Source: Eledone cirrhosa
Lineage: Eukaryota
Reading direction: 5' to 3'
Assembly (NCBI GenBank): GCA_964016885.1
Contig: OZ024755.1
Span: forward strand, 29,202,001-29,266,000
DNA length: 64,000 bases
Numbering within the stretch: position 1 is the stretch's first letter; each line of letters starts with the position of its first letter. This document shows positions 2,879 through 60,920 of the stretch, piece by piece. The notes beneath the pieces were generated by a model, which saw only the letters and a program-made list of their open reading frames with translations, was not told the DNA's origin and ran no database searches. Both the position numbers and the translations under genes were made by a program.

Positions 2879-3080
2879 TAGAAGGGATATTTAATTTGTT
2901 GGAAATACAACAAATATAAATGTTTATAACTGATTTAGAGCACTTGACAGAGTTCTGGAGTAAATATTCAATGATATTAAATAAATGGAAACTATATTTA
3001 TAAAACCATATTTATTCTATTATATATATATAATAAAATAAATATGGTTTTATAAATATAGTTTCCATTTATTTAATATC

Positions 3081-4972: not shown

Positions 4973-5186
4973 GGAGGTGAGTTTTATTGTAGTACAATAA
5001 AGCAATGCAGATATCGGATAAGAAGCACTCTACAGTTTGTAGGACTGGAGTATACATAATATATAAGATCAAAAGATGGTTAAAGGAGTTCCATGTATTT
5101 TATTATGCGCATTTCAAAAACAACATATGTTGATTTAAAACTGCACTATCCACAAGTGTTTTTTAGCCTTCATATCATGTCCTCCT

Positions 5187-5255
5187 GTTTTATCTGATGA
5201 AAACACAAATACTATTGCATGATGATGTTTGTTTTTGAAATGCGCATAATAAAAT
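5187..5255 (+). ncRNA. Minimal type-I hammerhead ribozyme
   Basis: GTTTTAT-CTGATGA-(imperfect stem II)-GAAA-TGCGCA-TA-ATAAAAT; palindromic stem III, AUA site; same family at 35401 and 60283. Confidence 0.8.
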
Positions 5256-5630
5256 ACATGGAACTCCTTTAACCATCTTTTGATCTTATATATTATATAT
5301 ATATATATAAGTAGAAGGGATATTTAATTTGTTGGAAATACAACAAATATAAATGTTTATAACTGATTTAGAGCACTTGACGGAGTTCTGGAGTAAATAT
5401 TCAATAATATTAAATAAATGGAAACTATATTTATAAAACTAGATTTATTCTATTATATATATTTCTATTATATATATATAATAGAATAAATATGGTTTTA
5501 TAAATATAGTTTCCATTTATTTAATATCATTGTGTATATATATATATATATGGTCATCAAGTATCAAATTTGTAGAAATTTGTTTTTTTTCTACAAGTTT
5601 CTACAAATTTCATACTTGACGACCTGTATA

Positions 5631-7752: not shown

Positions 7753-9569
7753 CCGTGATTTCCCCCAATATAAGCCATGCCCCGAAAACAAGCCGTAGCA
7801 AAAATGAACGGCAAAAAAAAGAAATGGCCGGCTATGAAAATTATAGAAGAGGATTGTCTCTTAATGTAAAACTAATTGATAAGCGGGTGGTATAAGAAGT
7901 TTGTGGAATGCGCGGAAGTGAAAATATCGATAATGAAATTAACGAAAGGAAAGAGGGAAGTGCGTGCAATCAATATTGTTTATGCAAGTGCGGGTACAAA
8001 CCAGAAGTAATGGCTTATCAGTAACTTCGGGGGAGAAGATCATTTTCAGCCCTAGACAAGATGAAAGGAAGGAAGAGTTATACAGTCGAGTACAAGAAAG
8101 GAATTGTGGAGGAATCACTGGGCAAGAATCTTACTATTTTCTGCAAAGAAAAGAATCTAGATCTCCGAATGGTTCAAAGATGGAGAATGGACTACAATAA
8201 ACTCAGACAGGACATAGGGAAACGTAAGCGTGGATCTGGTCGACAACCGATATTTCTTGAGCTGGAAGACGCCATCTGTGAATGGATTGCTGAAATAAGA
8301 GCCAGAGCTTTGGTTGTTCACAGGGCTGATATTCATTTGCCCTTACAAATGCACTAGAGTTTGGTATAGTTCCAGAAGAATTCAAAGAATCCAAACACTG
8401 ACTGAATAATTTCCTTCAGCGATACGAATTTTCTCTGAGAAGATCGACAACACTGTTCAAACTGGACGACACTGAGATTATTAAACGTGCACTCGCATTT
8501 AAGTCTTTTGTTGATGGAATAGACTTTTCTAACTACCGTCTCTCCAACATGATTGCTATGGATGAAACAGCAGTGTTCATGGGTCAAAGCTCTCAATCTA
8601 CAATTGATCAAAAGGGTGCGTCGTCAATTTACATTCCATCCACTGGTTACGAAAGTGCACGAGTTACGTGTATCTTGGCAATTCGTCTCGACGGAAGCAA
8701 AGCCCCACTTCTTATCATCACTAAAGGCTAGAAAGATACAATTGAACGCGTTTCAGGTATCTGTGTTTTGGAAACTGAAAAGGCGTGGTGCACACAGGCA
8801 GTTTTAAGGAAGTGGGTCGATTTCATGCTGCCATTGGTTTTGCGTGGAACCCAAAGAGGTCTCATAGTCTGGTATTCAGCCAGCACGCACCGCGCCAAAG
8901 ATATAAAGAACTTTCTTGGAGAAAGAAGAATCGATCAAATCATGATTCCCCCAGGAACGACCGCCTATCTCCAGACTCTTGACATCGCACTGAATAAACC
9001 ATTCAAGAACCATCTGCGCATGGAAATAAATGACTACATCGAAAACAGAATGGCGAGAAATGAGCAGGAAATTTCGTAAAGCCCAGCCTTCAAGAGATCG
9101 TGACTTGGGTGGGATATTCATGGAACAAAATCAGATAGCTGTGTCATGAATGCACTACGAACAGACTATCTTGATAAGAACTCTCCATTCAATTCGACCT
9201 CTATCGTTCAACATGAAAGACTAGGGACGAAAATTCTGCAGGCAATTGAGTCACAGGAAAATTCCACATGAATCATTGTATCCACTGATTTGTAAAACAT
9301 GACATTCCAGAGCAGGATGACATGATTATTGTCGAATAAATTAGTGGATAATTTCGCTCATGATTTTTTGAATTAAAGGGTGTGTTAATTTTTAATAAAT
9401 TTAATCTTTCAAATAAACGTTGCGCGTAAATGCCGATCATTTAGCGAATTTTTAATTTTCGGTTTCGTAATCTCGTTTTTACTCCCCCGAAAATAAGCCG
9501 TAGTGGTACATTTCGGTACATTTCAGTAAAAATTAATATAAGCCATGGCTTATAATCATGGAAACACGG
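7753..9569 (+). mobile_element. Pogo/Tigger-type (DDE_1) DNA transposon, near full length, defective
   Basis: Imperfect TIRs CCGTGATTTCC...TATAAGCC / GGCTTATA...GGAAACACGG followed by TA; internal transposase remnants. Confidence 0.88.
8061..9339 (+). pseudogene. Pogo-family transposase pseudogene (BrkDBD-like + CENP-B-type HTH + DDE_1)
   Basis: RKSYTVEYKK, GSGRQPIFLELEDAICEWI, IAMDET, SASTH, IPPGTTAYLQTLDIALNKPFK spread over frameshifted/stop-interrupted ORFs. Confidence 0.88.
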
Positions 9570-10630: not shown

Positions 10631-11965
10631 AATAATTTTTGAGGCCAGCCAACACGCTCGCAGCGTTACCGCGGGTGATGGCGAGGCTGATGTGCTGGAA
10701 AAACCAAGCGCCCTCACGAGCATCACCAGTTACCTCTGTTAAGCGAGCTGCTAGTGAAGATAGGAGTCTCGCAGTTCGATTCACCCCCCCCCCCCCCCCA
10801 AACGCCTCGAACGCCACAGACTGGAATATGCAGTTGGCTGACAGATCACCCCTGTTGAGGTAATGACATTCTGTCGTCATTACTACAACAGAGGTCCGAC
10901 GAGCTTTTTATGCCAGAGTCGGGCCACGTGCTTTTTAGCCATGGCACCTCCACGACCACTTTGCAGTGACAAGGTGTGGGGCCATAGTGTCTATATGCTT
11001 CAGCTTGTACCCATGGGAGGTCGGGTACTCTGTATTACTGCGTGACGCCAGAGGTCACGGTCGTGTGTCATCGCCTTGAGAGGTGTAATTGGGTAAGGTC
11101 GGCTTTTATCCCCTCAACCCATGTCTTCTTGGGTCTCCCCACTCCGCGGTTTCCATCGACTTCTAGTGCTCTGCACCTTTTTATGCAGCTGTCATCCTTC
11201 ATACGCATCACATGTCCATACCAACGCAACCGCCTCTCCTGCACACAGCATTTGATTCCTCTTATGCTCAGTCTCTCTCTCAATTCATTTATGCTTTGCC
11301 GTTCGCGCATATTACTATTACACATCCATCGGAGCATGCAGGCTTCGTTTCTTTCTAATCTACGTAAGTCTTCCACCTTCAGCGCCCAGGTCTCACTACC
11401 ATGTAACATTGCTGTTCGGATACACGCATCATACAGTCTGCCTTTCATTTTGAGGGAAAAGCCTTTTGCAGCTAGCAGTGGCAGTAATTCCCTGAACTTC
11501 TTCCATCCCGTTCTTACCCTAGTTATTGTACTTTCTGAACACCCACCTCCACTGCTAATTCGGTCACCTAGGTAGCAGAAGCTGTCTACTGTTTCTACAG
11601 AGCCCTCCCAGAGATTGGTGGTACTTGTTTCCTGTGGCTGTTTGCTGCTTGCTGTCCCAGCACAGCTGCTACATGTGAAGCCTACATTCTTAATTAAGCT
11701 TCCTGAGATCCCGCTACATCTCTTGTGTACCCATTGTTTGCATTTGGGGCAGAGAATGGAGTTCCTATCTACTCCTTTCCTACATACTGAGCAAGGCCAT
11801 TTCCCTGAGGGGATCTGGGTTCTGTTTTCTCGTCTACTTACAAGGACCTTAGTCTTTGTCATGTTGACTTTGAGACCCTTTCTTTCTAGTCCCTGCTTCC
11901 AAGTTTGAATTTCTTGTCTAGTTCTACCATAGATTCAGCTATAAGTGCGAGGTCATCTGCATACT
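10631..11965 (-). mobile_element. 5'-truncated RTE-clade LINE (RT C-terminus plus probable 3' UTR)
   Basis: YADDL at ~11950-11965; ORF 11068-11862 with KTKVL, FCYLGD, LHGSETW, RRLRWYGHVMR, GRPKKTW; boundary at 10631 approximate. Confidence 0.88.
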
Positions 11966-12519: not shown

Positions 12520-14524
12520 AAATCACACGGAGCCAGGTTGGACGAGTACTGAGATTTTACCAGCGATGTTTTTCTCTGTCAGGAGCCACCTAATACTCAG
12601 GGCGTTGTGAGCCGATACGTTGTTGTGGTGAAGCAACCACGAGTTGTCCTCCAAGAATTCTCGACTCTTTTGGGGGTCTGAACAAAGCAAAGGCCACAGT
12701 ATCTCTTTGTTGACATTCTGGTTGATCGCCTGGCCCTGTGGCAAGCACTCTATATGGACGATGTCTCTCACATTGAAGAACGCGAGAGCAACATGAGTTT
12801 GTCCTTGGGCTTCGAGTGACCTGCTTTTTGGGGCCACGGCTGCGCCGGACTCATCCATTGGAGGCTCTAGCGCTTGATCTCCTGATCGTACTCGGAAACC
12901 TATGACTCATAACTGGTGACGACTCTCCCCAGTAAGTCTGGTTCGGTTTCAAGATGCTGGAAGATGTCCTGTCACACCTGCACGCACCACTCCTTCTAGT
13001 CATCATTCAGCAGCTTTGGTCCCATCTTCGCGCAGATCTTCTGAATGCCCAAATTTTCGGTGATAATCTTCCAGACGCAGTCACGGTTGTTCATGCCCAG
13101 CTAACTTGAGATCAGTCAAACAGTTAGCCAATGGTCACCTCACATCCCCTACCTCCCGCACTCAACGTTGGCGTCAGTCCTGTTCGTTGAAGGCCTTCCG
13201 CTCCTGGGGTTGTCTTCCACGTCCTCCCACCACTCTTTGAACCTTTTGTGCCACTCGAAAACCCGTGAGTGCGATATTTTCTCTTCTCCGTTCACTTGCT
13301 ACATTATTCTGACCGCTTCAGGCAGAGTTTTTCCCAGCCAGACCAAAAGCTTCAGGCTGACCGCTTCAGGCAGAGTTTTTCCCAGCCAGACCAAAAGCTT
13401 CAGGCTGACCGCTTCAGGCAGAGTTTTTCCCAGCCAGACCAAAAGCTTCAGGCTGACCGCTTCAGGCAGAGTTTTTCCCAGCCAGACCAAAAGCTTCAGG
13501 CTGACCGCTTCAGGCAGAGTTTTTCCCAGCCAGACCAAAAGCTTCAGGCTGACCGCTTCAGGCAGAGTTTTTCCCACCCAGACCAAAAGCTTCAGGCTGA
13601 CCGCTTCAGGCAGAGTTTTTCCCAGCCAGACCAAAAGCTTCAGGCTGACCGCTTCAGGCAGAGTTTTTCCCAGCCAGACCAAAAGCTTCAGGCTGACCGC
13701 TTCAGGCAGAGTTTTTCCCACCCAGACCAAAAGCTTCAGGCTGACCGCTTCAGGCAGAGTTTTTCCCAGCCAGACCAAAAGCTTCAGGCTGACCGCTTCA
13801 GGCAGAGTTTTTCCCAGCCAGACCAAAAGCTTCAGGCTGACCGCTTCAGGCAGAGTTTTTCCCACCCAGACCAAAAGCTTCAGGCTGACCGCTTCAGGCA
13901 GAGTTTTTCCCAGCCAGACCAAAAGCTTCAGGCTGACCGCTTCAGGCAGAGTTTTTCCCAGCCAGACCAAAAGCTTCAGGCTGACCGCTTCAGGCAGAGT
14001 TTTTCCCACCCAGACCAAAAGCTTCAGGCTGACCGCTTCAGGCAGAGTTTTTCCCAGCCAGACCAAAAGCTTCAGGCTGACCGCTTCAGGCAGAGTTTTT
14101 CCCACCCAGACCAAAAGCTTCAGGCTGACCGCTTCAGGCAGAGTTTTTCCCAGCCAGACCAAAAGCTTCAGGCTGACCGCTTCAGGCAGAGTTTTTCCCA
14201 GCCAGACCAAAAGCTTCAGGCTGACCGCTTCAGGCAGAGTTTTTCCCAGCCAGACCAAAAGCTTCAGGCTGACCGCTTCAGGCAGAGTTTTTCCCACCCA
14301 GACCAAAAGCTTCAGGTTAGTTTGTGGCTCTGTGTCCATCAATCGGCGGCCTAAACTTGAAGAGCTATTAACAAAAGCACGTGAAAAACATACAAAGGTC
14401 GGAGAGAGCTGAAATCGCAGCTATATACTCCCTGCATATTACATCAGGCAGTGACACAACGCTAATCCCTACACCACTCATAGCTCACGCACCACACCAT
14501 GTTATGTTTCTGAGATACCTTGTA
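12520..14524 (-). mobile_element. Decayed mariner transposon
   Basis: Minus strand MDTEPQTNLKLLVWLGKT, RVFEWHKRFK, degenerate VTSYES*VSEYDQEIKR (ITGDESW motif), WLLHHNNVSAH; TIR-like TACAAGGTATCTCAGAAACATAAC at 14501-14524. Confidence 0.85.
13309..14316. repeat. 48-bp tandem array, 21 copies
   Basis: Unit CTGACCGCTTCAGGCAGAGTTTTTCCCA(G/C)CCAGACCAAAAGCTTCAGG with one variable position. Confidence 0.97.
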
Positions 14525-16014: not shown

Positions 16015-16233
16015 GTATCGACAGTCGATCGACATTTTCGTCAAATTGGACCGAAGAAACAATGTTTCCATTGTTCTTTCCAATTGCTAATACTATCTAT
16101 CAGTAGCAACTCCAGGTAGAAGGAGCAACGTGAAATAAAGTGTCTTGCCCAAGGACATAACGCATTGCCCAGTCCTGGAATTGAACTCACAACCTCACGA
16201 TTGCGAATTCAATTCTCTAACTCAACCACGCGC

Positions 16234-16235
<2 letters not shown>
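16015..16235 (-). mobile_element. tRNA-derived SINE, family B
   Basis: Reverse complement of the 49807 copy; TCCTTGGGCAAGACACT core. Confidence 0.8.
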
Positions 16236-16777: not shown

Positions 16778-17765
16778 ATGGCATATCCTTTTGGAAAAAT
16801 GATTCTTCTTTTGTTTGGTGATTTGATGCCATCTGTAAATGAAAAACCAGTATTTTCTAGAATTTCATCATATTATGCCAAAAGAACAGAAATTGGCATT
16901 AGTGGGCATTCGTTGTGGAAATACTTTCAATATGATGAGCTAACCATTAATATGAAACAAAAAGAAGACAAAGACAACTATGTTGATATTTTGGGAAGAA
17001 TTAGGATTGGTTCCCCATCAGACTCTGATATAAGCATTCTTCAAAAAAGATGCCTATTTCCTAATAGAAAAGAATCTGTTGAAGAAATTGCTAAAAAAAT
17101 TGATTGAATTGTATTCTATTCCTGAATTAAAATTTGTATGCATTTTACTTTTGAATGAAGCTGTTGATGAGTTGAATAATGAAATGATTTTAAAAAATGC
17201 AACATGAATGCAGTGAAACTTGCTGCAAAAGATTCTGGTATGAGACAAGTAAATGGAAGAAAAAAAGAAAAATGTTGAAAAAGGCAAAAACAAGAAAACT
17301 TCTGATACTGCTGGACTAGAAACTTTGCTAAATGTTGGAATTGGAGCAAGAGTGATGTTGACACGAAACATTGATGTAGATCAAGGCTTTATGCAATGGT
17401 GTTATTGGACAGTTATTGAATTAATTGGGAATGGAAGCAATGTTGACAAAATGTTGGTGTCTTTTGATACCAAAAAGGACAAACCCAGTTCCATTGGAAG
17501 AGTTCAAGCAGACTATGAAATTTCTCCTGGTGTTTTTGTCACCAGAACACAATTTCCATTGTCTCTTGCTTACTCTATAACAATTCACAAGTCACAAGGA
17601 ATTTCTGTGGATGGAATAATTGCTGATTTAGGAAATCAGATATTTTCTGATGGTCAAGCTTATGTGGTTCTTTCAAGAGCCAGAAAACTTTGCAATGTGT
17701 ATCTCTGTGACTTTGATCCAAGATCATTGATCGTGGTTGACAAATCTGCATGGGAAGAATTTACG
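16778..17765 (+). pseudogene. Helitron-type PIF1-family helicase fragment
   Basis: PFG..ILLLFGDL, LTINMKQ, ILGRIRIG, VGIGARVMLTRNID, RTQFPLSLAYSITIHKSQG, FSDGQAYVVLSR; frameshifted, intronless, 3' end interrupted by a SINE. Confidence 0.85.
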
Positions 17766-17784
17766 ATCTGCCTTCAAGTTCCGC

Positions 17785-18424
17785 CGAGGTTAACTTTGCC
17801 TTTCATCCTTACGGGGGGGGGGGGATAAAATAAAGTACCAGTAATGCACTGGGATAATTGCTGGCCTTGTGCCAAAAAAGTAGAAACAATTATTATTAGT
17901 GTGGATTAGCAGTATCAGTAGCGGGTCGGACGCCATGTTTTGCAGCATAGAGTTACGGCCCTTTACGGTCTGTGTTCAAATCCCGCCGCGGTTAACTTTG
18001 CTTTTTCATCCTTACGAGGTCTATAAAATATAGTACCAGTAATGCACTGGGATGATTGCTGGCTTTGTGCCAAAATTAGAAACAATTATTATTAGTGTTA
18101 CTATTATTACGACGCTATCAATTATATAACATTCCGTTAGCTTTGCATTTCAGTGCACTCCATATTTAGCATCAACAATCAATATGAATGATGCAGTAAA
18201 ATGTTTGACTCTTTACTCAATATTATTCTACATAGAGCGGTGAATTGGCAGTATCGGTAGAGGGTCGGACGCCTTGCTTTGACGCATAGAGTTACGGCCC
18301 TTGCCATTCTGAGTTCAAATCCCGCCGAGGTTAACTATGCCTTTCATCCTTACGGGGTCGATAAAATGAAGTACCAATAATGTACTGGGTGATTGCTGGC
18401 CTTGTGCCAATAGTAGAAACAATT
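17785..18424 (+). mobile_element. Three SINE family 1 copies
   Basis: 17785-17890, 17899-18088, 18237-18424; last has TSD ATTATTCTACATAGA. Confidence 0.88.
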
Positions 18425-22495: not shown

Positions 22496-22688
22496 GGAAC
22501 AAGTAAGATCCCGATGGCTGAGCTCAAGCCGTTTCGACGGCTAATTCTGGAATCCCAGAATTAGCCGTCGAAACGGCTTGAGCTCAGCCATCGGGGTCTT
22601 ACTTGTTCCTATTACCCACTCTACTACCCTAAGTATTGGGTGCTTTGGTGCGTTATGGTCCACCTGGTTCCTTACCACATATCCTTCG

Positions 22689-22690
<2 letters not shown>
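22496..22690 (+). mobile_element. Fold-back PLE-pLTR-like element (family A) in (TA)n
   Basis: Inverted arms centred at ~22553 plus tail CCTATTACCCACTCTACTACCCTAAG...CCTTCGTT(TA)n; relatives at ~433-585, 7369-7477, 22730-22866, 25315-25455, 26736-26890, 32152-32282, 34270-34452, 34482-34640, 48254-48670, 60437-60573. Confidence 0.75.
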
Positions 22691-22732
<42 letters not shown>

Positions 22733-22870
22733 AAGGAAATGTAGTTGGGAACCAGGAGGACCACAAAGCACCAGAGTACTCGATACTCTAGGTAATAGAG
22801 TGAGTCCAGAAATAGCCGTCGAAACGGCTTGAGCTCTGCCGTCGGGGTCCTGCACCTCTTTTCCTATATT

Positions 22871-24322: not shown

Positions 24323-25642
24323 TATTATCGTCTGTGAACCAGAAACTTTTGGTAATGGAGTAGTTATATTTTGCGTTGTTCACTTTCTAATTAAATATAT
24401 ACAGACACATATATACATTCATACATACATATACACATGGTGGCTGCCAACTCGTTTTCGAGTACGGTCACTACTTTATATCCATGTAGGAGAACCCCTA
24501 CCGATGCGCTGAACGAGTGAGACTTTTTAGTCCAGCCAACGACTTGAAAGATCTGGTACAAACACTACACTTGTGACAATTATTGACACATAGTGCTGGG
24601 CCCATAGTACCATGTGACGACAAGTGCAGAGAGATCACCAGATATAAAGCAATGCCTGTGCCGTGAAGGTTTTATAGTGAGCAAAGGCACTGCACAAAAC
24701 CAGTCCCACTCTCTTAACCAAGATGATATTTACCAAAAAGAAGAACAAGTCAACATCATTGGATACCATCAGAGTTGCAAGTGTTATATCAGAGTTTTCC
24801 TTCTCCTAGAATTCTACCTTGTCAAAGGCTAAAGGGTCATCTCTCCCGGTGATTTTGGATTGCCATAGACTCTTAAGAAGTCATTTGCCCTTTGACAGGT
24901 TTTGTTTTAGTCCTGCAGGATATCCAAAGTCACCCTCCTCACCAAGAAACCTTGGTAGGGTTGCCAGTTTAGTCGCCAACGACCCGACCATGAGACAGGT
25001 TGTACTGGGATACATTTTACCAGTAGCACCAACTGGTGATCTGACATAACATACATACATACATACATACATACATGCATACATATATACATATATATAA
25101 TATTAATAAAAGGAAAATATCTTTATGAAACCATATTTAGTTTATTATACGTATTTCAAGGGTAATAATTAGTATCCTTGATATTTTTCATTTAATAATA
25201 TTATTGATATCAATGTTACTCCAGATAAAAAACTGTTGAGTGCTTCTAATCTGTTGTAAAATTAGGTTTGTTGAATAATCAACAAACCGTATAACTCATT
25301 GTTTATATATACATATAACGAAGGAAGTGTGGTAAGGAACCAGGTGGACCATAATGCACCAGAGTACTCAATACATTTGGTAACAGAGTGGGTAATAGGA
25401 AAATGTTCAAGACCCCGACAGCAGAGCTCAAGCCGTTTCGACGGCTATTTCTGGAATAAATTAGAATTTTAGCGTGGTAGTAAATAGCCGAAAATTTAAA
25501 GGGCAAATTCCTTATATGGGTGTGCGATAATGATGCATTTCTGAAGATAATAGGAATACACGCCGATATAAGGAATTACCCCTTGAAAAGTTCGGCTATT
25601 TACTACCACGTTAAAAATCTAATTTTTGTGGATGAATATATA

Positions 25643-32151: not shown

Positions 32152-32282
32152 TAGGAAAATAGTCAGGACCCCGACGGCTGAGGTCCCGCCATTTCGACAG
32201 CTAGATCCGAACGGTTCTAGAATTCGGATCTACCTGTCGAAACGGCCGGAGCTCAGCCGTCGGGGTCCTGACTCTTTTCCTA
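32152..32282. mobile_element. Fold-back element, family A
   Basis: ~55-bp inverted arms around TTCTAGAA, right end in (TA)n. Confidence 0.75.
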
Positions 32283-32570: not shown

Positions 32571-32648
32571 ATATATATTATATATATATATATTACATAT
32601 ATAGTGACGAAACATAAGTCAATTGCATGAACTCATAATCCTTTATTT

Positions 32649-32704
32649 ACTGCTATATATATTTCGATGATAGCCATTGAATGGATATGACCTCATCAGG
32701 AAGT
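32649..32704 (-). ncRNA. Hammerhead ribozyme, inverted copy of 32782
   Basis: Reverse complement of the 32782-32837 motif with one substitution each in stems I and II. Confidence 0.7.
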
Positions 32705-32781
32705 TAGTCAGTTCTTAGATATGCCAGCTCTGTGTGTATGGTGTTGATGGTATCAGAGCCTTGGGATATAAGAACTGACTA

Positions 32782-32837
32782 ACTGCCTGATGAGGTCATA
32801 GCCATTCAATGGCTATCATCGAAATATATATAGCAGT
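32782..32837 (+). ncRNA. Minimal type-I hammerhead ribozyme
   Basis: ACTGC-CTGATGA-GGTC ATAGCCATT c AATGGCTAT CATC-GAAA-TATATA-TA-GCAGT; palindromic stem III, AUA site. Confidence 0.85.
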
Positions 32838-34269
32838 AAATATATTCAGATATTGATACATATTGATGAATTCAGATATTGATACATTTTGTTTGAAATA
32901 TATTCGTTTTCATTGGTACACGCTCAGAAAATTTCAAAGAGTTAAAAGGAAGATTAGAATTAAATTAGAAGAATTCATTGCTTTAAATAGGTATCAAGAC
33001 ATTCAATCACGCAGAGTAAGAAGGTGCATTTGTAATAAAATCAATTAGTTTCAAATTTTGAAAGGAGTCTACATGAATCGACTTGGCAAGAAATTAATTT
33101 ACCAAACTGAAAGAGAGATTACATTGATTCATTTGGGATTTGTACTAAGAACATAAAAATCTGTAACTAAATACCGTCAAGCATTTTATTAGATCCCCCC
33201 CACGACCCTACCAATCCACCATCCCTGTTTTCACTAATATGAGGAATACAATATCTACATGGGTTTCAATGGAACGACCTTTATGCCTTTATGTTTATTG
33301 GAAATACATAATATTCACAATATCCATTCCGAACTTTTAAGATTTCAGTCTTCAGACTAGAAATAATTATAATCCTATGCAATTCTTGTTAAACGCTTCA
33401 GTTTAATTACTTCTACAAGAACTTAATTAACACTATTTATGTCCCTAATTTAATTCTAATAATGTTCTGTCGATATTAGTTATTATAATTACTATGGGCA
33501 TTATTTATTAAGCTGTGCACATTAATTAAATCCTGATCACAAACATTTGGTGTATTACAAAGACCAGCGAAATCTAACTATCAGGTTAAATATTGTCATT
33601 CCCATTATACGACTATAAAATAAATGATATACGAGAATTTATTGCCAAATGTATTATAGCCTGGCATGACAACATTCCTTTATACATTTACAGTCTTTTG
33701 ATGAAAACAATTAACGATATTTATGCAGTTATATATTGTTTTCTTTGTGTGTATATACTCGACACTGTCATGAACCAGATTGCTATAAAACGTAGTTAAT
33801 CGGCCCAATAACTAAGTATGAAACATATATCTATTGATCCGGTTATGCCATACCCATGTGTGGTTGGGGAGGATAGCACGCTTTCTATTATACAACATAT
33901 GCATGTAGTGCAATAGTGTTGCCTGTCATATTAAATGATCTTCAATTTCCGGTTTGTTTCTACACATCTATAGATGCTGATGTTTATGCAGCATAGCTGA
34001 ATGGTGAAGACGTTCAGTTGGCATTCATTACGACATATATTTGATCCTATTATACAATTGCCGTTTATTTTAAGCTCCGGTCAAGCCAAGCCGTGTAAGT
34101 GAAATTATTTAAACAGAAAATGTTTGAAAGCCCTTTGGAAGAATGGTATCTCTAATTCAACGGTAATCCTTGTAGCCCAGTATGTGAGACCGGCAGTAGA
34201 ATACTCAGCCCCTTCCGTTGTACATTTAAGTAGGTCTCGAATTTTTCATATATATATATATATATATAT

Positions 34270-34640: not shown

Positions 34641-34885
34641 TATATATATATATATATAAATATATTCTACAAGTATCTCCCAGTCCAGGATTGAACCCCA
34701 GACCTGGATTGAACCTCCAAGCCGCCGAAACTGATATATATATATATATATATAATAGTAGAAGGCTGGAGTGTTATATCCATAGTAACAGAGCCCTCAG
34801 TTCATGGGACGAGTTTGGTTTAAGTAGTTCCACAACAGTTGATTCATCATATCGAGAACAAATGTTTCACCGTATACGGATTTAG

Positions 34886-34928
34886 ACCGAGCTGAGGATC
34901 CGAACAAGGTGAAACATTTGTTCTCGGT
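34886..34928 (+). ncRNA. Minimal type-I hammerhead ribozyme
   Basis: ACCGAG-CTGAGGA-TCC gaacaa GGT-GAAAC attt GTT-CTCGGT; GUU site; inside a fold-back element (~34825-34955). Confidence 0.7.
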
Positions 34929-34952
34929 TTGGTGAACTAACTGTTGTGGAAC

Positions 34953-35016
<64 letters not shown>

Positions 35017-42815: not shown

Positions 42816-43092
42816 TATATAACTTATAATAAATTGGAGTGAAAGCAACTGGTATTGTTATGCTTTGGGAGGGTCATGTTGCCAATAAGATACTTATTGG
42901 CAACATGACCCTCCCAAAGCATAACAATATCGGTTTCAACACACGTTTTCAGATAAAGAATCTTGCTAAACAAATTCAGAAACGATATATATATATTAAG
43001 GTACGTTTAGAACTTTCAACGTATAATAGCTAAAATTTACAGACATATCTTAATATGTCGAATATTTTCTCCAGTGTTGTATCGATTCTGTA

Positions 43093-46695: not shown

Positions 46696-46876
46696 CTAGT
46701 TATGAACATACTATTTCTCTGGGTTTTAAAAATTAAATAAGGGATCATATCCATTTAAAAACAATCAATTTGAATAAAGTATTTTAGTTAGAAATGCTGT
46801 ATTATTGATGAACAAACTAATAGATCGTGACGTATTTTTTAGTTGAAGACATCCCACTTCATTATATTGGTAATAC

Positions 46877-47063
46877 GGTGGATTGGCAGTATCGGTAGAG
46901 GGTCGGACGCCATGCTTTGACGCATAGAGTTACGGCCCTTGCCATTCTGAGTTCAAATCCTGCCGAGGTTAAATTTGCCTTTCATCCTTACGAGGTTGAT
47001 AAAATAAAGTACCAGTAATACACTGGGTAATTGCTGGCCTTGTGCCAAAAGTAGAAACAATTA
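46877..47063 (+). mobile_element. SINE family 1
   Basis: Full length, TSD ATTATATTGGTAATAC. Confidence 0.9.
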
Positions 47064-48119
47064 TATTGGTAATACAGATGATTAGGAAATTAATGGCTCA
47101 CACACCTTTTCTTTTTTCCTATAAATCTTGCTCCTCCCAAGTCGAAAGAGACTATAATTCCATTGCAATTTAAAATAACAAAAACCCGTTTAATTTATTG
47201 TTCCCAGGTGTAAATTAAACATTCGAGATGACAACTAAAACAATGAATGTGAAACAAAAAATTAGTCAAAGAGTACAATTGATCCGCATTATTGGTCACA
47301 TAAAAAGCATAAATATGCGTTTCTTCTTTCTTTAAAAATAATTCTCCTGAGATATTCACAGATTTGCACTGCCAGAATCAACTCGGAAAATGTTTCCGAA
47401 AAGCAAATATCAAAAAATGAATTATTAGAAATATCAAATCCAACAACTTCTCAAGCATAAAATAGAGTATGGCTTATGAGTGATGAGGTTATTTACGATA
47501 TACGCCAATTAGATATCATTAACAGCATTGGCGTCAAATTGAAAAAAAAAAAAAAAATCCTATATTCTCAGTTAAATCGTTCAGAGTTCGTATTCTCCTA
47601 CTGACGTTTCACTCTCTCCAGAAAGACATGTTCGACATGGCATCAAATAATTGGTTTCAAAATAGAAAGGTTATGGCTTTATTGATATGACAGCTTATAA
47701 ACACTGGCTTCGTGGATATATGATATTAAAAAAATGCAACAGTGGTGAATCAGTCGCTTCTTTTTACCAATTCCGAGTGAATGTATACAGGACAATATCC
47801 AACATTTCCTTTCTTATTTTAAAAGCGTAGAGCACTCTATAAGAAATTATTGTAAAAATGTGGCTATTTGGAGGATCTTTTGTTTGCTACCCGTGAAAAG
47901 TTTTGATTTTGGTTTACCTTCTGGGGTCTATAGGTGTGGGTTGGGATCAATCGTGACGTGTATTCATTTAATGAAATAAATATGAAAAATGTTTATTTCG
48001 TCGGATTAAAGAAAAACTTTAAATACATTCATGTGCTTTTGCACATTTATTTTACCCAATATTCTTTAATTTATATGGAACTTTAGACCCACTTCAACTA
48101 CCAACACACATAGCCTCCC

Positions 48120-48155
<36 letters not shown>

Positions 48156-48199
48156 ATAATATATATATATATATATATATGATGTTAAATATATATATG

Positions 48200-48253
<54 letters not shown>

Positions 48254-48255
<2 letters not shown>

Positions 48256-48353
48256 AACCAGTAAGACCCCGACAGCTGAACTCAAGCCGTTTCGACGGCT
48301 AATTCTGGACTAAAATTCTCTTACCACTCAGCCACGCGCCTTCATATATATAG

Positions 48354-48439
<86 letters not shown>

Positions 48440-48669
48440 TAACAGATAAGAGTTTAAGCAAAGAATCGCTGCTTTCACCCTTAACGGGATTATTATTATT
48501 GTTGTTACTATATATATATACTATATATATTTAGTCCAGAATTAGCCGTCGAAACGGCTGGAGCTCAGCTGTCGGGGTCTTACTGGTTCCTATTACCCAC
48601 TCTACTACCTCAAGTATTGAGTACTTTGGTGCGTTATGGTCCACCTGGTTCCTTACCACATTTCCTTCG

Positions 48670-48670
<1 letters not shown>
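48254..48670 (+). mobile_element. Fold-back element, family A, with ~200-bp captured insert at its centre
   Basis: Arms ...CTGGACTAAA and TTTAGTCCAG... separated by an inverted copy of 49630-49832. Confidence 0.75.
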
Positions 48671-48728
<58 letters not shown>

Positions 48729-49063
48729 TTTATATATATATATATGATATCATATATATGTATATATGATATTATATATATATATATATGATATAATATA
48801 TATATATATATATGATATAATATATATATATATATGATATAATATATATATATATATGATATAATATATATATATATATATGATATAATATATATATATA
48901 TATGATATAATATATATATATATATGATATAATATATATATATATATGATATAATATATATATATATATGATATAATATATATATATATATGATATAATA
49001 TATATATATATATGATATAATATATATACATGATATAATATATATATATATATATATGATATA

Positions 49064-49095
<32 letters not shown>

Positions 49096-49105
49096 TATAT
49101 ATATG

Positions 49106-49151
<46 letters not shown>

Positions 49152-49176
49152 ATATATATGATATTATATATATATG

Positions 49177-49223
<47 letters not shown>

Positions 49224-49400
49224 AGCATATATATATATATATGATATAATATATATATATATGTATAATATATATATATGATATTAAATATATATAATAT
49301 AATATATATATGATATTATATATATATATATATATATATATGATATTAAATGTATATAATATATATATATATATATATATGATATATGATATATGATATA

Positions 49401-49437
<37 letters not shown>

Positions 49438-49603
49438 ATTATATATATATATATATGATATTATATATATATATATATGATATAATATATATATATATGA
49501 TATAATATATATATATATGATATAATATATATATATATATATATATATGCTATTATATATATATATATGTATATGCTATTATATATATATATATATGTAT
49601 ATG

Positions 49604-49640
<37 letters not shown>
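48671..49640. repeat. Long interrupted (TA)n tract with TGATATAA periodicity
   Basis: ~970 bp, roughly 22-26-bp secondary period. Confidence 0.95.
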
Positions 49641-49642
<2 letters not shown>

Positions 49643-49708
49643 ACAACAATAATAATAATCCCGTTAAGGGTGAAAGCAGCGATTCTTTGCTTAAACTCTT
49701 ATCTGTTA

Positions 49709-49794
<86 letters not shown>

Positions 49795-49806
49795 ATATAT
49801 ATATGA

Positions 49807-50021
49807 AGGCGCGTGGCTGAGTGGTAAGAGAATTGGAATCGCAATCGTGAGGTTGTGAGTTCGATTCCCGGACAGGTGATGCGTTATGTCCTTGAGCAAG
49901 ATACTTTATTTCACGTTGCTCCTTCAACCTGGAGCTGCGCCCGATAGATAGTATTAGCAATTAGAAAGACCAACAGAAACATTGTTTCCTCGGTCTGATT
50001 TGACGAAAGTCGATCCACTGA

Positions 50022-50025
<4 letters not shown>
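49807..50025 (+). mobile_element. tRNA-derived SINE, family B (full length)
   Basis: A box TGGCTGAGTGG, B box GAGTTCGATTCC, core TCCTTGAGCAAGATACT, tail ending in (TA)n. Confidence 0.85.
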
Positions 50026-50057
<32 letters not shown>

Positions 50058-50099
50058 ATATACATTTTATATATAATATAATATATATATATATATAAT

Positions 50100-50275
50100 A
50101 TAATTTATTCTACTTTTGGCAGAGCAATTACAACAGTACATTACTGGTACTTTATTTTATCGACCCCGTAAGGATGAAAGGCAAAGTTAACCTCGACAGG
50201 ATTTGAACTCAGAATGGAAAGGACCGTATGGGTCAAAGCATGGCGTCCGACCCTCTACCGATACTGCCAATCCAC
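50100..50275 (-). mobile_element. SINE family 1
   Basis: Consensus match inside a TA-rich tract. Confidence 0.8.
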
Positions 50276-50279
50276 GGAT

Positions 50280-51605
<1,326 letters not shown>

Positions 51606-53686
51606 GTCTTTTATTTTATTCACTCTTGTGTCGCCATTTATGTAATCGGCAAACTTGTGTGTTTATCTTTATGTTTTAATCGTCTCCTTTAAATTTACAC
51701 TGATTTTGTTTTCTCTTTGAAGACAACAGTAAATCTGTTGACGCGTAGTAAAATAGTTCATTAATTCTGTTTTACTATTGTAAACTTCAATATATTATTG
51801 CAACAAATATAGTTAATTTTGCTAACACATAAAATGCAAATAAACTTAAAGAGAAATTCTCATACAATTTTTTTCTCTAATCATATCAAAATATGTTTTT
51901 GTCTTTTCAATTGAAGCTGGATGTTAATTAAAGTTTGATAACAAAATATAATTATTAAAGTATATTTGAGAATTTAAAAGATAAAAATAAGATGTTCTGT
52001 AACAGCGGTAATATGGAACTTAATGCAAAGTTATATAATATATCCAGTACAATTGAATTGGTGTAGACCCCCGTCGGTTTCGAGGATATATGTTAGAGTA
52101 ATTCAATTAAAGGAACAGTCTGTACAAGATATTAACATGTAAGTGGTACAGTACAAAGACTTGTACTCTTAAGGTTATTCTCAGATAGATTTAGCGTAAG
52201 CACGTACTGTCTATTCGACTGTCTTTCAAACAATTTCCATTCATTCAATTTCACTTTGTAGATATGCCCAATGCTGAAACACCCCTACACGGCATTGGAC
52301 TTGGCAGAGTTTAATGAGAAAGGACAGCAATGTGTTCAGCTATGGCGGAACCACATCTAACCAAGTTTTGTAGCCGACATTCTTGTAGAAACGATAGGAA
52401 AGAAGTTGAACTTTGCAGATGTAGGTAGAAACTAGAATATGTTAAAAGTCACCTTCCGAAGATGCCATGCAGTGGGAATTAACCCACTGCATAAGGACTT
52501 CGGAGAGTCATCATGTTGCTTCCAGTTTAGAGATTGAGAAACATTACGCATTTATATATCAGAAAAAACATATGCGATGTAGGGTAGGTCTCAACATATG
52601 AATACATGCTCTTCAAAACAGTGTTACAAATAGGTGAATTTTCAGATTATATAGCTGTGAGTTATTGTCGATAGTACAAGAATATGGCGATAAAGAAAAC
52701 AAGCAACATGCAGGAGATGCATTTTGTTGGTTTGAAATCGTTGCGAAACGACCGGAAACAATCTCCGCCATATTTCAGAATCAATTGTTTAATGCTATTC
52801 TGCTTTTCTGATATTTTCTAGCAGGTATTGATAATATCATGGCTAATCTATTAGATGTGACATTACCGGTCTGTTGGAAAGTTTTTACAGTTGGTCGAGT
52901 TTGTCATTAGATGTTTTTTTTTCTTACTAGTATACACTCACTGTGTATTGTAATTAGGATCGTAATATTTCAACTGGTTCATTAGACGTGGAGGCTTGCA
53001 GAGAATGATGTCTAAAATGAATACGATTTAACGGAAGATTTTATCTCTAAAAGGAAAGAGGAAACGTGAAAGAGACGAAATTTGGAACGAGATAAATACA
53101 ATGTCAGGCAAATTATAAATTTGTTGATCGTATGTTAGATTCTCTGTAAACTTTTCTATACTAAAACACAATCTATTTATTTTTTATTTAATATCTCGTT
53201 GGGCATTAATTGGCAGAAGCTCACACTTCTGATCTTACTAAATATCTTAAAAATTGATGTATGTATGTACAACCGTAAGGAGGTAGATTTCTCTGGGCTT
53301 TGAAAAATAGTTCATTAGAAATTGATTGTATATCAGAATAACTGTTTAATTACGGATACGGTTGAATTTGTCCGTGAATTTACAACCGAAAGTCAATGAT
53401 TGAAATGCTCGAAAATGATAAAGCTTCGATACGGTAATTATTGCCTGATTGTTTTTTTTTATGCTTCGAACTGACAATGGATAATAAGTATCAAGAGAAT
53501 TTACACAAATTGTTTCGGTTCCTATGCGTCCATTCATGCGCTGAGTTCGATTTTATTTCTACATTCGAGTTTACACATTAATTATAAATAATTGATATAA
53601 TCTGTGTTACCACCAATCAAACCTTTGGGAATTATGACTGTAGCAGAAAGCTCTGCCTAAATGCTACATTCAATCCGAAATACATT

Positions 53687-54415
53687 TGTCCCTACTATTA
53701 AGTGGTATCACGTATCTCACGTTGTTCCTACTATTGGTGGCATCATATATCTCATGTTATCTCTACTATTGGTGGCATTACATATCTCATGTTGTCTCTA
53801 CTATTGGTGGCATCATATATCTCATGTTGTCTCCACTATTAAGATATCACATATCTCACGTTGTCCCTACTATTGGTGGCATCACATATCTCACGTTATT
53901 CCTACTATTGGTGGCATCATATATCTCATGTTGTCTCTACTATTAAGATATCACATATCTCACGTTGTCCCTACTATTGGTGGAATCACATTTCTCACGC
54001 TGTCCCTACTATTGGTGGCATCACATATCTCACGTTGTTCCTACTATTGGTGGCATCACATATCTCATGTTGTCTCTACTATTGGTGGCATCACATATCT
54101 CACGTTGTCTCTACTATTAAGATATCACATATCTCACGTTGTCCCTACTATTGGTGGAATCACATTTCTCACGCTGTCCCTACTATTGGTGGTATCACAT
54201 ATCTCACGTTGTTCCTACTATTGGTGGCATCACATATCTCATGTTGTCTCTACTATTGGTGGCATCACATATCTCACGTTGTCTCTACTATTAAGATATC
54301 ACATATCTCACGTTGTCTCTACTATTGGTGGCATCACATATCTCACGTTGTCTCTACTATTAAGATATCACATATCTCACGTTGTCTCTACTATTGGTGG
54401 CATCACATATCTCAT
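53687..54415. repeat. 34/35-bp minisatellite, about 21 units
   Basis: Unit ATCACATATCTCACGTTGTCTCTACTATT(GGTGGC|AAGAT). Confidence 0.95.
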
Positions 54416-55494: not shown

Positions 55495-55710
55495 GTTGAG
55501 TTACCTTAGTGTGGAACGGCTATCCAGCAATATCAGTGGTTCGAACGACGAAATTGTTTTTTAAACTACAGAAAATTCACAATATTTATCACAATAGTTT
55601 GTCTAATCATTAGACTGCGTAATCATATACGCACTCATAATGCTAATAAAACGAAGGTCATTTGTTCACTGATATTGCTGGATAGCCGTTCCACACTAAG
55701 CTAATTCAAC
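55495..55710. mobile_element. MITE with long TIRs
   Basis: Perfect 34-bp inverted repeat 55505-55538 / 55667-55700, extendable imperfectly by ~10 bp. Confidence 0.8.
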
Positions 55711-60178: not shown

Positions 60179-60250
<72 letters not shown>

Positions 60251-60282
60251 GAAGATCAAAAGATGGTTAAAAGAGTTCCAAG

Positions 60283-60353
60283 TATTTTATTATGCGCATT
60301 TCAAAAACAAATATCATCATGGGATGATATCTGCGTTCTCATCAGATAAAATA
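60283..60353 (-). ncRNA. Minimal type-I hammerhead ribozyme (5187 family, best-preserved copy)
   Basis: Minus strand TATTTTAT-CTGATGA-stem II-GAAA-TGCGCA-TA-ATAAAATA. Confidence 0.85.
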
Positions 60354-60572
60354 GGGAGACATGATATGAAGCTTAAAAAACACTTGTGAATAGTGAAGTT
60401 TTAAATCAACATGTTTATTTAAAACTTCACTATTCTGGTCCAGAAATACCCGTCGAAACGGCTTGAGCTCTGGCCTCGGGTCAAATTTTTTCCTATTTCC
60501 CAGTCTACTACCCTAGGGATCGAGTACTCTGGTGCGTTATGGTCAATCTGGTTTCTTACCACAATTCCTTTG

Positions 60573-60640
<68 letters not shown>

Positions 60641-60850: not shown

Positions 60851-60920
60851 TTAATCTGTTATTTTAATAAATATATATATATATTACTTCAAAATATTAA
60901 TAAATTCATGTGATCAAATA

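Follow-up and report, generated by a model that had tools for sequence, protein, structure and literature searches.

The loop of one hairpin repeat in the 64-kb window (the whole stretch of DNA that was analysed) is, as read from the assembled sequence, very probably a real feature that was templated by the DNA next to it. Positions 48314-48520 match 49628-49834 in reverse complement along 207 bp with no gap, and lie between the two arms of a palindrome of family A, a repeat with putative Penelope-like anatomy. The original prediction had placed this inverted match at 48316-48517 and 49630-49832, exactly between the arms of such a palindrome; both the match, which proved slightly wider, and its position between arms at 48254-48314 and 48530-48590 were borne out. 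The locus is a new instance of a known junction accident, the templated inverted insertion at a retroelement junction, and its value lies in the clue that it offers to how a poorly understood step, integration, proceeds in this class of elements.

Structure of the hairpin and origin of its loop

The locus is composed of the following features:

48124..48253: left part of the (TA)n target tract that the element interrupts (TRF), with the TGATATAA-type interruption found in the right tract, in the same orientation
48254..48314, minus strand: short inverted arm of family A, without tail, with TA at its outer end and 59/61 positions identical to the right arm
48314..48345, minus strand: captured insert, part 1, the first bases of a SINE-like element with a short TA lead-in, identical to the reverse complement of 49803-49834
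48346..48433: captured insert, part 2, compound (CA)10(TA)30 microsatellite, of the same total length as (CA)16(TA)22 in the source
48434..48508, plus strand: captured insert, part 3, a 3' fragment from a repeat family that bears a hammerhead, lacking ~30 bp through a local deletion and identical to the reverse complement of 49640-49714
48506..48530: right junction, 13-nt unit repeated 1.9 times (TRF), a stutter of the C/(TA)n border of the source
48530..48593, plus strand: main arm of family A, in which GAAA, a possible stem III and GTC resemble one half (3') of a hammerhead core (alignment of 16 arms)
48594..48670, plus strand: one-sided tail of family A, ~77 nt, ending at TA (present in 10 copies within the window)
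48671..49639: right part of the split (TA)n tract, 969 bp, with 48 G/C bases and no stretch of more than 12 nt without TATA
49628..49834, plus strand: source, comprising the end of the TA tract, a hammerhead-family tail fragment (minus), (TA)22(TG)16 and the start of a SINE-like element
49808..50020, plus strand: SINE-like element B, 86% to 16022-16234, its head partly copied into the insert

Insert and source differ at ten positions, every one of them within the microsatellite portion (eight T/C differences at the CA/TA border and two just ahead of the CA run), and their unique bases are identical at 107 of 107 positions, of which 32 bp belong to the SINE-like head and 75 bp to the hammerhead-family tail. 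Furthermore, they have in common a deletion of ~30 bp that is missing from the two other copies of this tail in the window (at 60865 and 43245); these copies are 94% and 86% identical, and the best other SINE-B copy is 87% identical. Between the two microsatellites (48346-48433 and 49715-49802), the CA/TA border has moved by 8 units at equal total length, a shift that could stem from conversion between the inverted copies or from polishing. The hammerhead-family copy near 60.9 kb contains a CTGAnGA...GAAA core upstream. The label SINE-B was given by the earlier reader from sequence alone, and ARAGORN identified no tRNA genes in the SINE-like head.

Within the 64 kb, the mosaic of head, microsatellite and deleted tail occurs at two places only, the insert and the source, in agreement with the earlier claim that the source is locus-specific. 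The other exact inverted 30-mers 0.3-1.6 kb apart all belong to copies of a dispersed and abundant repeat located at 56.7-58.6 kb. Capture of the 200-bp mosaic in trans, as a dispersed unit derived from an RNA or a distant locus with a nearby second copy by chance, is highly improbable: host DNA between the pLTRs of Adineta elements is described as captured in trans (PMC3846280), but here the mosaic is confined to these two places and the insert includes the border of the source with the same TA tract.

This tract is shared by both sides of the element. Of the 24 occurrences of TGATATAA in the window, 20 fall in the two flanking TA tracts, and a 16-mer form of the interruption is present 19 times, always in one orientation, twice to the left of the element and 17 times to its right; it is found nowhere else in the window on either strand, though 3226 of the 4072 TA-run bases lie elsewhere. 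The interruptions reported earlier as common to both flanks are thus local and, as they share one orientation, indicate a single tract that was split by the element with nothing between inverted; that the DNA separating insert from source underwent a net inversion was accordingly rejected. Between the end of the element and the source lies one TA tract and nothing else, making the source the first non-TA DNA beyond it. The original prediction of a source 1.1 kb downstream exaggerates the jump, since the intervening DNA is a single tract. Moreover, the right tract has multiplied its own interruptions, one of which is present in 17 copies; this suggests that the tract has grown since, and it may have been less long when the capture took place. 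A 12-mer within it (49285-49296), which is also present at 48186, equals the inner end of the right arm plus the first TA units of the spacer; it is a possible first priming site, or its presence may be due to chance.

Taken together, the identity of the unique bases, the shared deletion, the recurrence of the same mosaic and the single split TA tract give good support to a template switch to the flank that copied local DNA. The original prediction had proposed such a switch during integration, of which the local copying stands and the timing is likely.

The two arms end at the same base, with the symmetry running three bases further (TAT) at the outer end, and both are among the longest 5' extents of their subfamily. 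Being intact to the same base, they indicate that the apex lost nothing. At the left junction, insert part 1 and the short arm overlap by 1 nt (48314), and two unique sequences are joined there. The right junction offers TA homology for priming and shows the 13-nt stutter, which is the only (TA)4[CG](TA)4 among the 196 TA runs of the window and suggests that copying began there.

These junctions also bear on the possibility of an assembly, polishing or library chimera, in which an inverted local piece or another haplotype was joined via TA repeats. Such an artefact is improbable, even though the right junction passes through TA and the differences are confined to microsatellites of equal total length, as cross-mapped polishing could give. 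The left junction unites unique sequences with an overlap of a single base, two switches would need to have hit the apex of the hairpin exactly, with arms that share subfamily variants, both a stutter and ten base differences are present, and the window contains no N. In three sequencing runs of one sample, 0.65-0.70 of the sampled words of 46700-50400 were present, a share that is not junction-specific; 17 runs with word shares of 0.15-0.20 for this interval were left out. Reads of four of the 23 listed runs were compared with the right junction and the element, a comparison that covers the sequence outside the repeat-bearing part in which the junction lies; the zero depth within that part therefore speaks neither for nor against the junction.

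Family A and its Penelope-like anatomy

The window contains ~11 loci of family A (10 with the tail and one without it), among them six two-armed hairpins as well as single-armed copies. The outer end of the arm is fixed and usually adjoins TA: among the ends listed, this applies to four of five left ends, the fifth being located in a GA run, and to all seven right ends, one of which has just two TA units. The tail (~77 nt) is optional and occurs on one side only; it is missing from the short arms and from 32154-32280, a symmetric hairpin. The inner ends of the arm subfamily are clustered within ~6 nt, which suggests that the template was short and its 5' end nearly invariant. For eight of 12 arms, the sole nearest neighbour is their own partner, with a tie in one further case and a different arm in the remaining three. 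Apices differ between copies, and the loops of the other family A hairpins are 4-11 nt long.

Family A is abundant, with more than 4000 contigs or reads matched per run. In two RAD runs, 678 and 640 reads enter TA right after 48593 and most reads continue into the tail, indicating that both ends of family A are in use genome-wide. Longer family A copies were absent from two metagenome pattern scans. One hairpin (22732-22867), which has one arm mostly deleted, lies back to back with the hairpin copy 22496-22689 across a TA run and is followed by a 5'-truncated SINE-B. The copy at 48530-48670 forms an open reading frame of 47 codons from end to end; the single match of this 47-aa frame among 1.84 billion proteins, a bacterial-type repeat protein that scored by summed repeats, was rejected as spurious.

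Family A does not fit a MITE of the Tc1/mariner type, in which TIRs define both ends and the interior is constant: one repeat usually lies ~77 nt inside the end, apices vary and single-armed copies occur. Helitron 3' ends comprise a small hairpin followed by CTAA, and the reverse strand of family A likewise shows a small hairpin and then CTAA. Together with the ends GGAA...TTCC beside TA and the symmetric, tailless hairpin at 32154-32280, this similarity would accord with a DNA-based element, either MITE-like with long TIRs or Helitron-like, in which the insert represents filler from abortive gap repair that followed excision or insertion. We consider this quite improbable, as the tail is optional and one-sided, single-armed copies and variable apices are found, and several other hairpin families in the window contain full CTGAnGA...GAAA cores. 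Penelope anatomy also offers the better fit (PMC3846280, PMC8557442).

Family A resembles a non-autonomous Penelope derivative and is, by its anatomy, a candidate member of this group. EN+ Penelope-like insertions are described as having an inverted pLTR, an optional tail and an AT/TA target bias (PMC3846280, PMC8557442). Family A shares with them the head-to-head inverted, 5'-truncated copy at its 5' end (six hairpins) and the bias for TA targets (PMC3846280, PMC8557442). It also has an optional tail on one side, which at ~77 nt is twice the published length (30-40 bp), and a putative half of a core in place of the hammerhead motifs of EN+ elements; no ORF was linked to family A within the sequences searched. 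Host DNA is sometimes found between the pLTRs of EN+ elements, as it is between the arms here; in contrast to this locus, however, the published captures considered here are not described as having an inverted origin from the flank of the insertion site (PMC3846280). Penelope-like families are reported to be active in an octopus genome, and hammerhead retrozymes to be related to pLTRs (PMC13282606; 10.64898/2026.07.22.740005).

No RT or GIY-YIG domain was identified by Pfam in 81 of the 89 non-repetitive frames of at least 75 aa in the window; a non-autonomous element need not encode one. On its sense strand, GAAA, a possible stem and GTC follow each other in an arrangement that resembles the 3' half of a hammerhead. 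In an alignment of this half-core across 16 arms, AAA and its pairing T are invariant (16/16) and 79% of the stem cells are paired. None of the six pairs of the putative stem III exhibits a compensatory change, and its score is no better than that of shuffled sequences. The CTGAnGA half of the core is missing from family A, and Rfam yielded no matches in the window.

Proposed course of the insertion

We hypothesize that the loop probably originated during insertion, when the 3' end of the new DNA folded back on the resected flank, copied 207 bp of it in inverted orientation and was then joined. A Penelope-type endonuclease/RT acting in trans would have cut both strands within the TA tract, and the right-hand end would have primed cDNA synthesis from the tail (bottom strand, 48670 to 48530). 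Resection of 5' ends, with the top strand of the right flank resected or melted, would have bared up to ~1.2 kb of the same strand, or a shorter span if the TA tract has grown since insertion. As (TA)n is self-complementary, priming would be possible anywhere in the tract; annealing of the cDNA end near the far edge and a start there would have resulted in the short TA spacer. Synthesis would then have started, slipped back once to generate the 13-nt stutter and copied through to 49834, in the style of SD-MMEJ or polymerase theta, before the copied end (~200 nt) was joined to the short arm at the 1-nt overlap.

The strand geometry fits such a fold-back of the cDNA. Read from the right flank, the bottom strand consists of the tail and arm cDNA, TA with the stutter, the top-strand sequence of 49628-49834, the sense arm and TA, and the insert thus has the orientation of a same-strand fold-back product of the tail-side flank. 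Points against this course are the 1-nt overlap on the left, its reliance on a single event and the shift of the microsatellite border, which the model leaves unexplained. The negative result for RT and GIY-YIG domains in the frames scanned, the spurious match of the 47-aa frame and the missing compensatory changes in the hammerhead stem likewise count against it.

The short arm could have originated when the left end primed synthesis at the element's other start site (twin priming), or alternatively by a second snap-back onto the cDNA itself, which would yield the same junctions. Twin priming is somewhat favoured, because PMC11167929 describes a PLE protein that cuts both strands and extends them from two start sites, and because two different families are arranged head-to-head at 60248-60573. 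Extended to the genome as a whole, the suggestion that its hairpins were built by twin priming, with both ends of a (TA)n break extended by a Penelope-type RT and then end-joined, is tentative and rather doubtful. Under twin priming, an apex would be a repair junction able to trap local DNA or to join two families and, if this is true, thousands of apices would constitute a fossil record of Penelope-like element integration.

Alternatively, a plain hairpin may have been inserted first and the apex of its near-perfect palindrome cut later, with the repair copying neighbouring DNA by the same snap-back chemistry. Divergence leans to such a later capture, as the arms differ at 2/61 positions versus 0/107 unique bases between insert and source, which is not significant (Fisher p=0.13; 2/61 versus 2/204 in an alternative count, p=0.23). 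Each arm contains one base that departs from the majority. In the right arm this is 48560, where the RAD reads disagree with the arm in 2083/2085 and 2495/2499 minus mates and in 186/254 and 188/261 plus mates, and the other variant, in the left arm, falls below listing at 5% in the RAD reads. The instability of family A apices, evident from loops of 4-11 nt elsewhere and from one hairpin without most of an arm, would also accord with later repair. However, neither arm is short of a base at the apex, the age difference lacks significance, and gene conversion between nearby inverted copies could keep insert and source alike. Later repair is unlikely, and capture during insertion by a folded-back cDNA end remains the reading that we prefer.

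If captured during insertion, an apex that contains the flanking DNA of its own site implies that joining of the arms took place on the chromosome, where an end had been resected. The formation of Penelope-like head-to-head inverted structures is named as unresolved in PMC8557442; self-priming of RNA on an antisense template has been proposed (PMC3846280), and cutting and extension of both strands has been demonstrated in vitro for a PLE protein (PMC11167929). Given the abundance of family A, the question of how the arms are joined is testable genome-wide.

Comparison with known junction accidents and with other loci

Insertions made by SD-MMEJ or polymerase theta feature inverted copies of the flank, iterative starts and joins of 1-3 nt, and are usually shorter and nearer to the break than the insert described here. 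The present locus resembles them in its inverted flank copy, repeated start and 1-nt join, with the enzyme in this case being putative.

Among retroelements, R2 insertions are described as having snap-back junctions, in which the end of the cDNA has copied either the cDNA or target DNA close by (PMC11371274). As at the 5' junctions of R2 PRINT, the 3' end of a cDNA would here have primed DNA-templated synthesis before the junction closed; in contrast to that engineered system in human rDNA, the present case is natural, apparently germline and involves a Penelope-like element, and a second arm of the element brackets the copy, unlike in R2 snap-back junctions (PMC11371274). Somatic L1 insertions include fold-back inverted duplications of ~52-220 bp, with three cases and one more with twin priming (~0.4% of insertions; PMC10191854). 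Resection and self-annealing of L1-induced ends are reported to explain inversions and inverted duplications, including an inversion of 917 bp and one event on the primary RT end (10.1101/2024.12.14.628481). The locus shares with these L1 events a rare inverted copy of the target site (52-220 bp in L1 and 207 bp here; PMC10191854). Most L1 duplications directly adjoin the insertion and affect its upstream (reciprocal) end (PMC10191854; 10.1101/2024.12.14.628481), whereas the copy described here derives from the tail-side flank across a TA tract of ~1 kb. For Penelope-like elements, two RT start sites of a PLE protein that cuts and extends both strands delimit the tail (PMC11167929), and Adineta Penelope elements are reported to capture host DNA between their pLTRs, with self-priming and jumps between templates proposed by the authors (PMC3846280). 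In the main texts of the open-access literature searched, neither a Penelope-like hairpin whose apex was templated locally nor twin priming by a Penelope element was found to be described.

Among the 17 hairpins of the window, the one at 48254 is the only hairpin with a loop copied from nearby DNA. The best exact matches of the other 16 loops are at most 16 nt long and none lies within 2 kb. The expectation that inserts matching the flank would be a general pattern of family A palindromes thus failed within the window, copying of the flank was rejected as a general property of its hairpin loops, and the locally copied loop is best regarded as an occasional accident and no family trait.

At 60248-60573, a full-hammerhead family (minus) lies head-to-head with family A (plus), both 3' ends facing out into TA tracts, and the join is a 24-bp zero-loop fold-back (60388-60435). 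Twin priming that involved two RNAs would be expected to give such a product, at which this single case hints; successive insertion of the two families could account for it as well. At 25318-25625, a single-armed copy of family A adjoins an arm that belongs to a different hammerhead-bearing hairpin; the two overlap by a few bases and no TA separates them, which may reflect a template jump between families. Further hairpin repeats of several families were identified at 1344-1520, 2973-3080, 5063-5289, 5402-5532, 5552-5624, 25458-25625, 32644-32842, 34825-34954, 42847-42935 and 55495-55710, some of which hold CTGAnGA...GAAA cores that Rfam leaves uncalled.

The window as a whole is AT-rich, repeat-dense and eukaryote-like, and its repeats presumably resemble those of octopus genomes. 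Coding remnants found in it are of the transposon type only (Pfam DDE_1, weak helicase matches and a PHD finger). They are decayed and located at 8732-9076, 11071-11934 and 17253-17825, comprising a DDE_1 transposase, a PHD-bearing frame, which we take to resemble the end of a LINE ORF, and a Pif1/UvrD-like helicase fragment that scores below the Pfam cut-off. In addition, tandem arrays with units of ~96 bp (~99% identical) and ~35 bp are present at 13309-14316 and 53667-54415.
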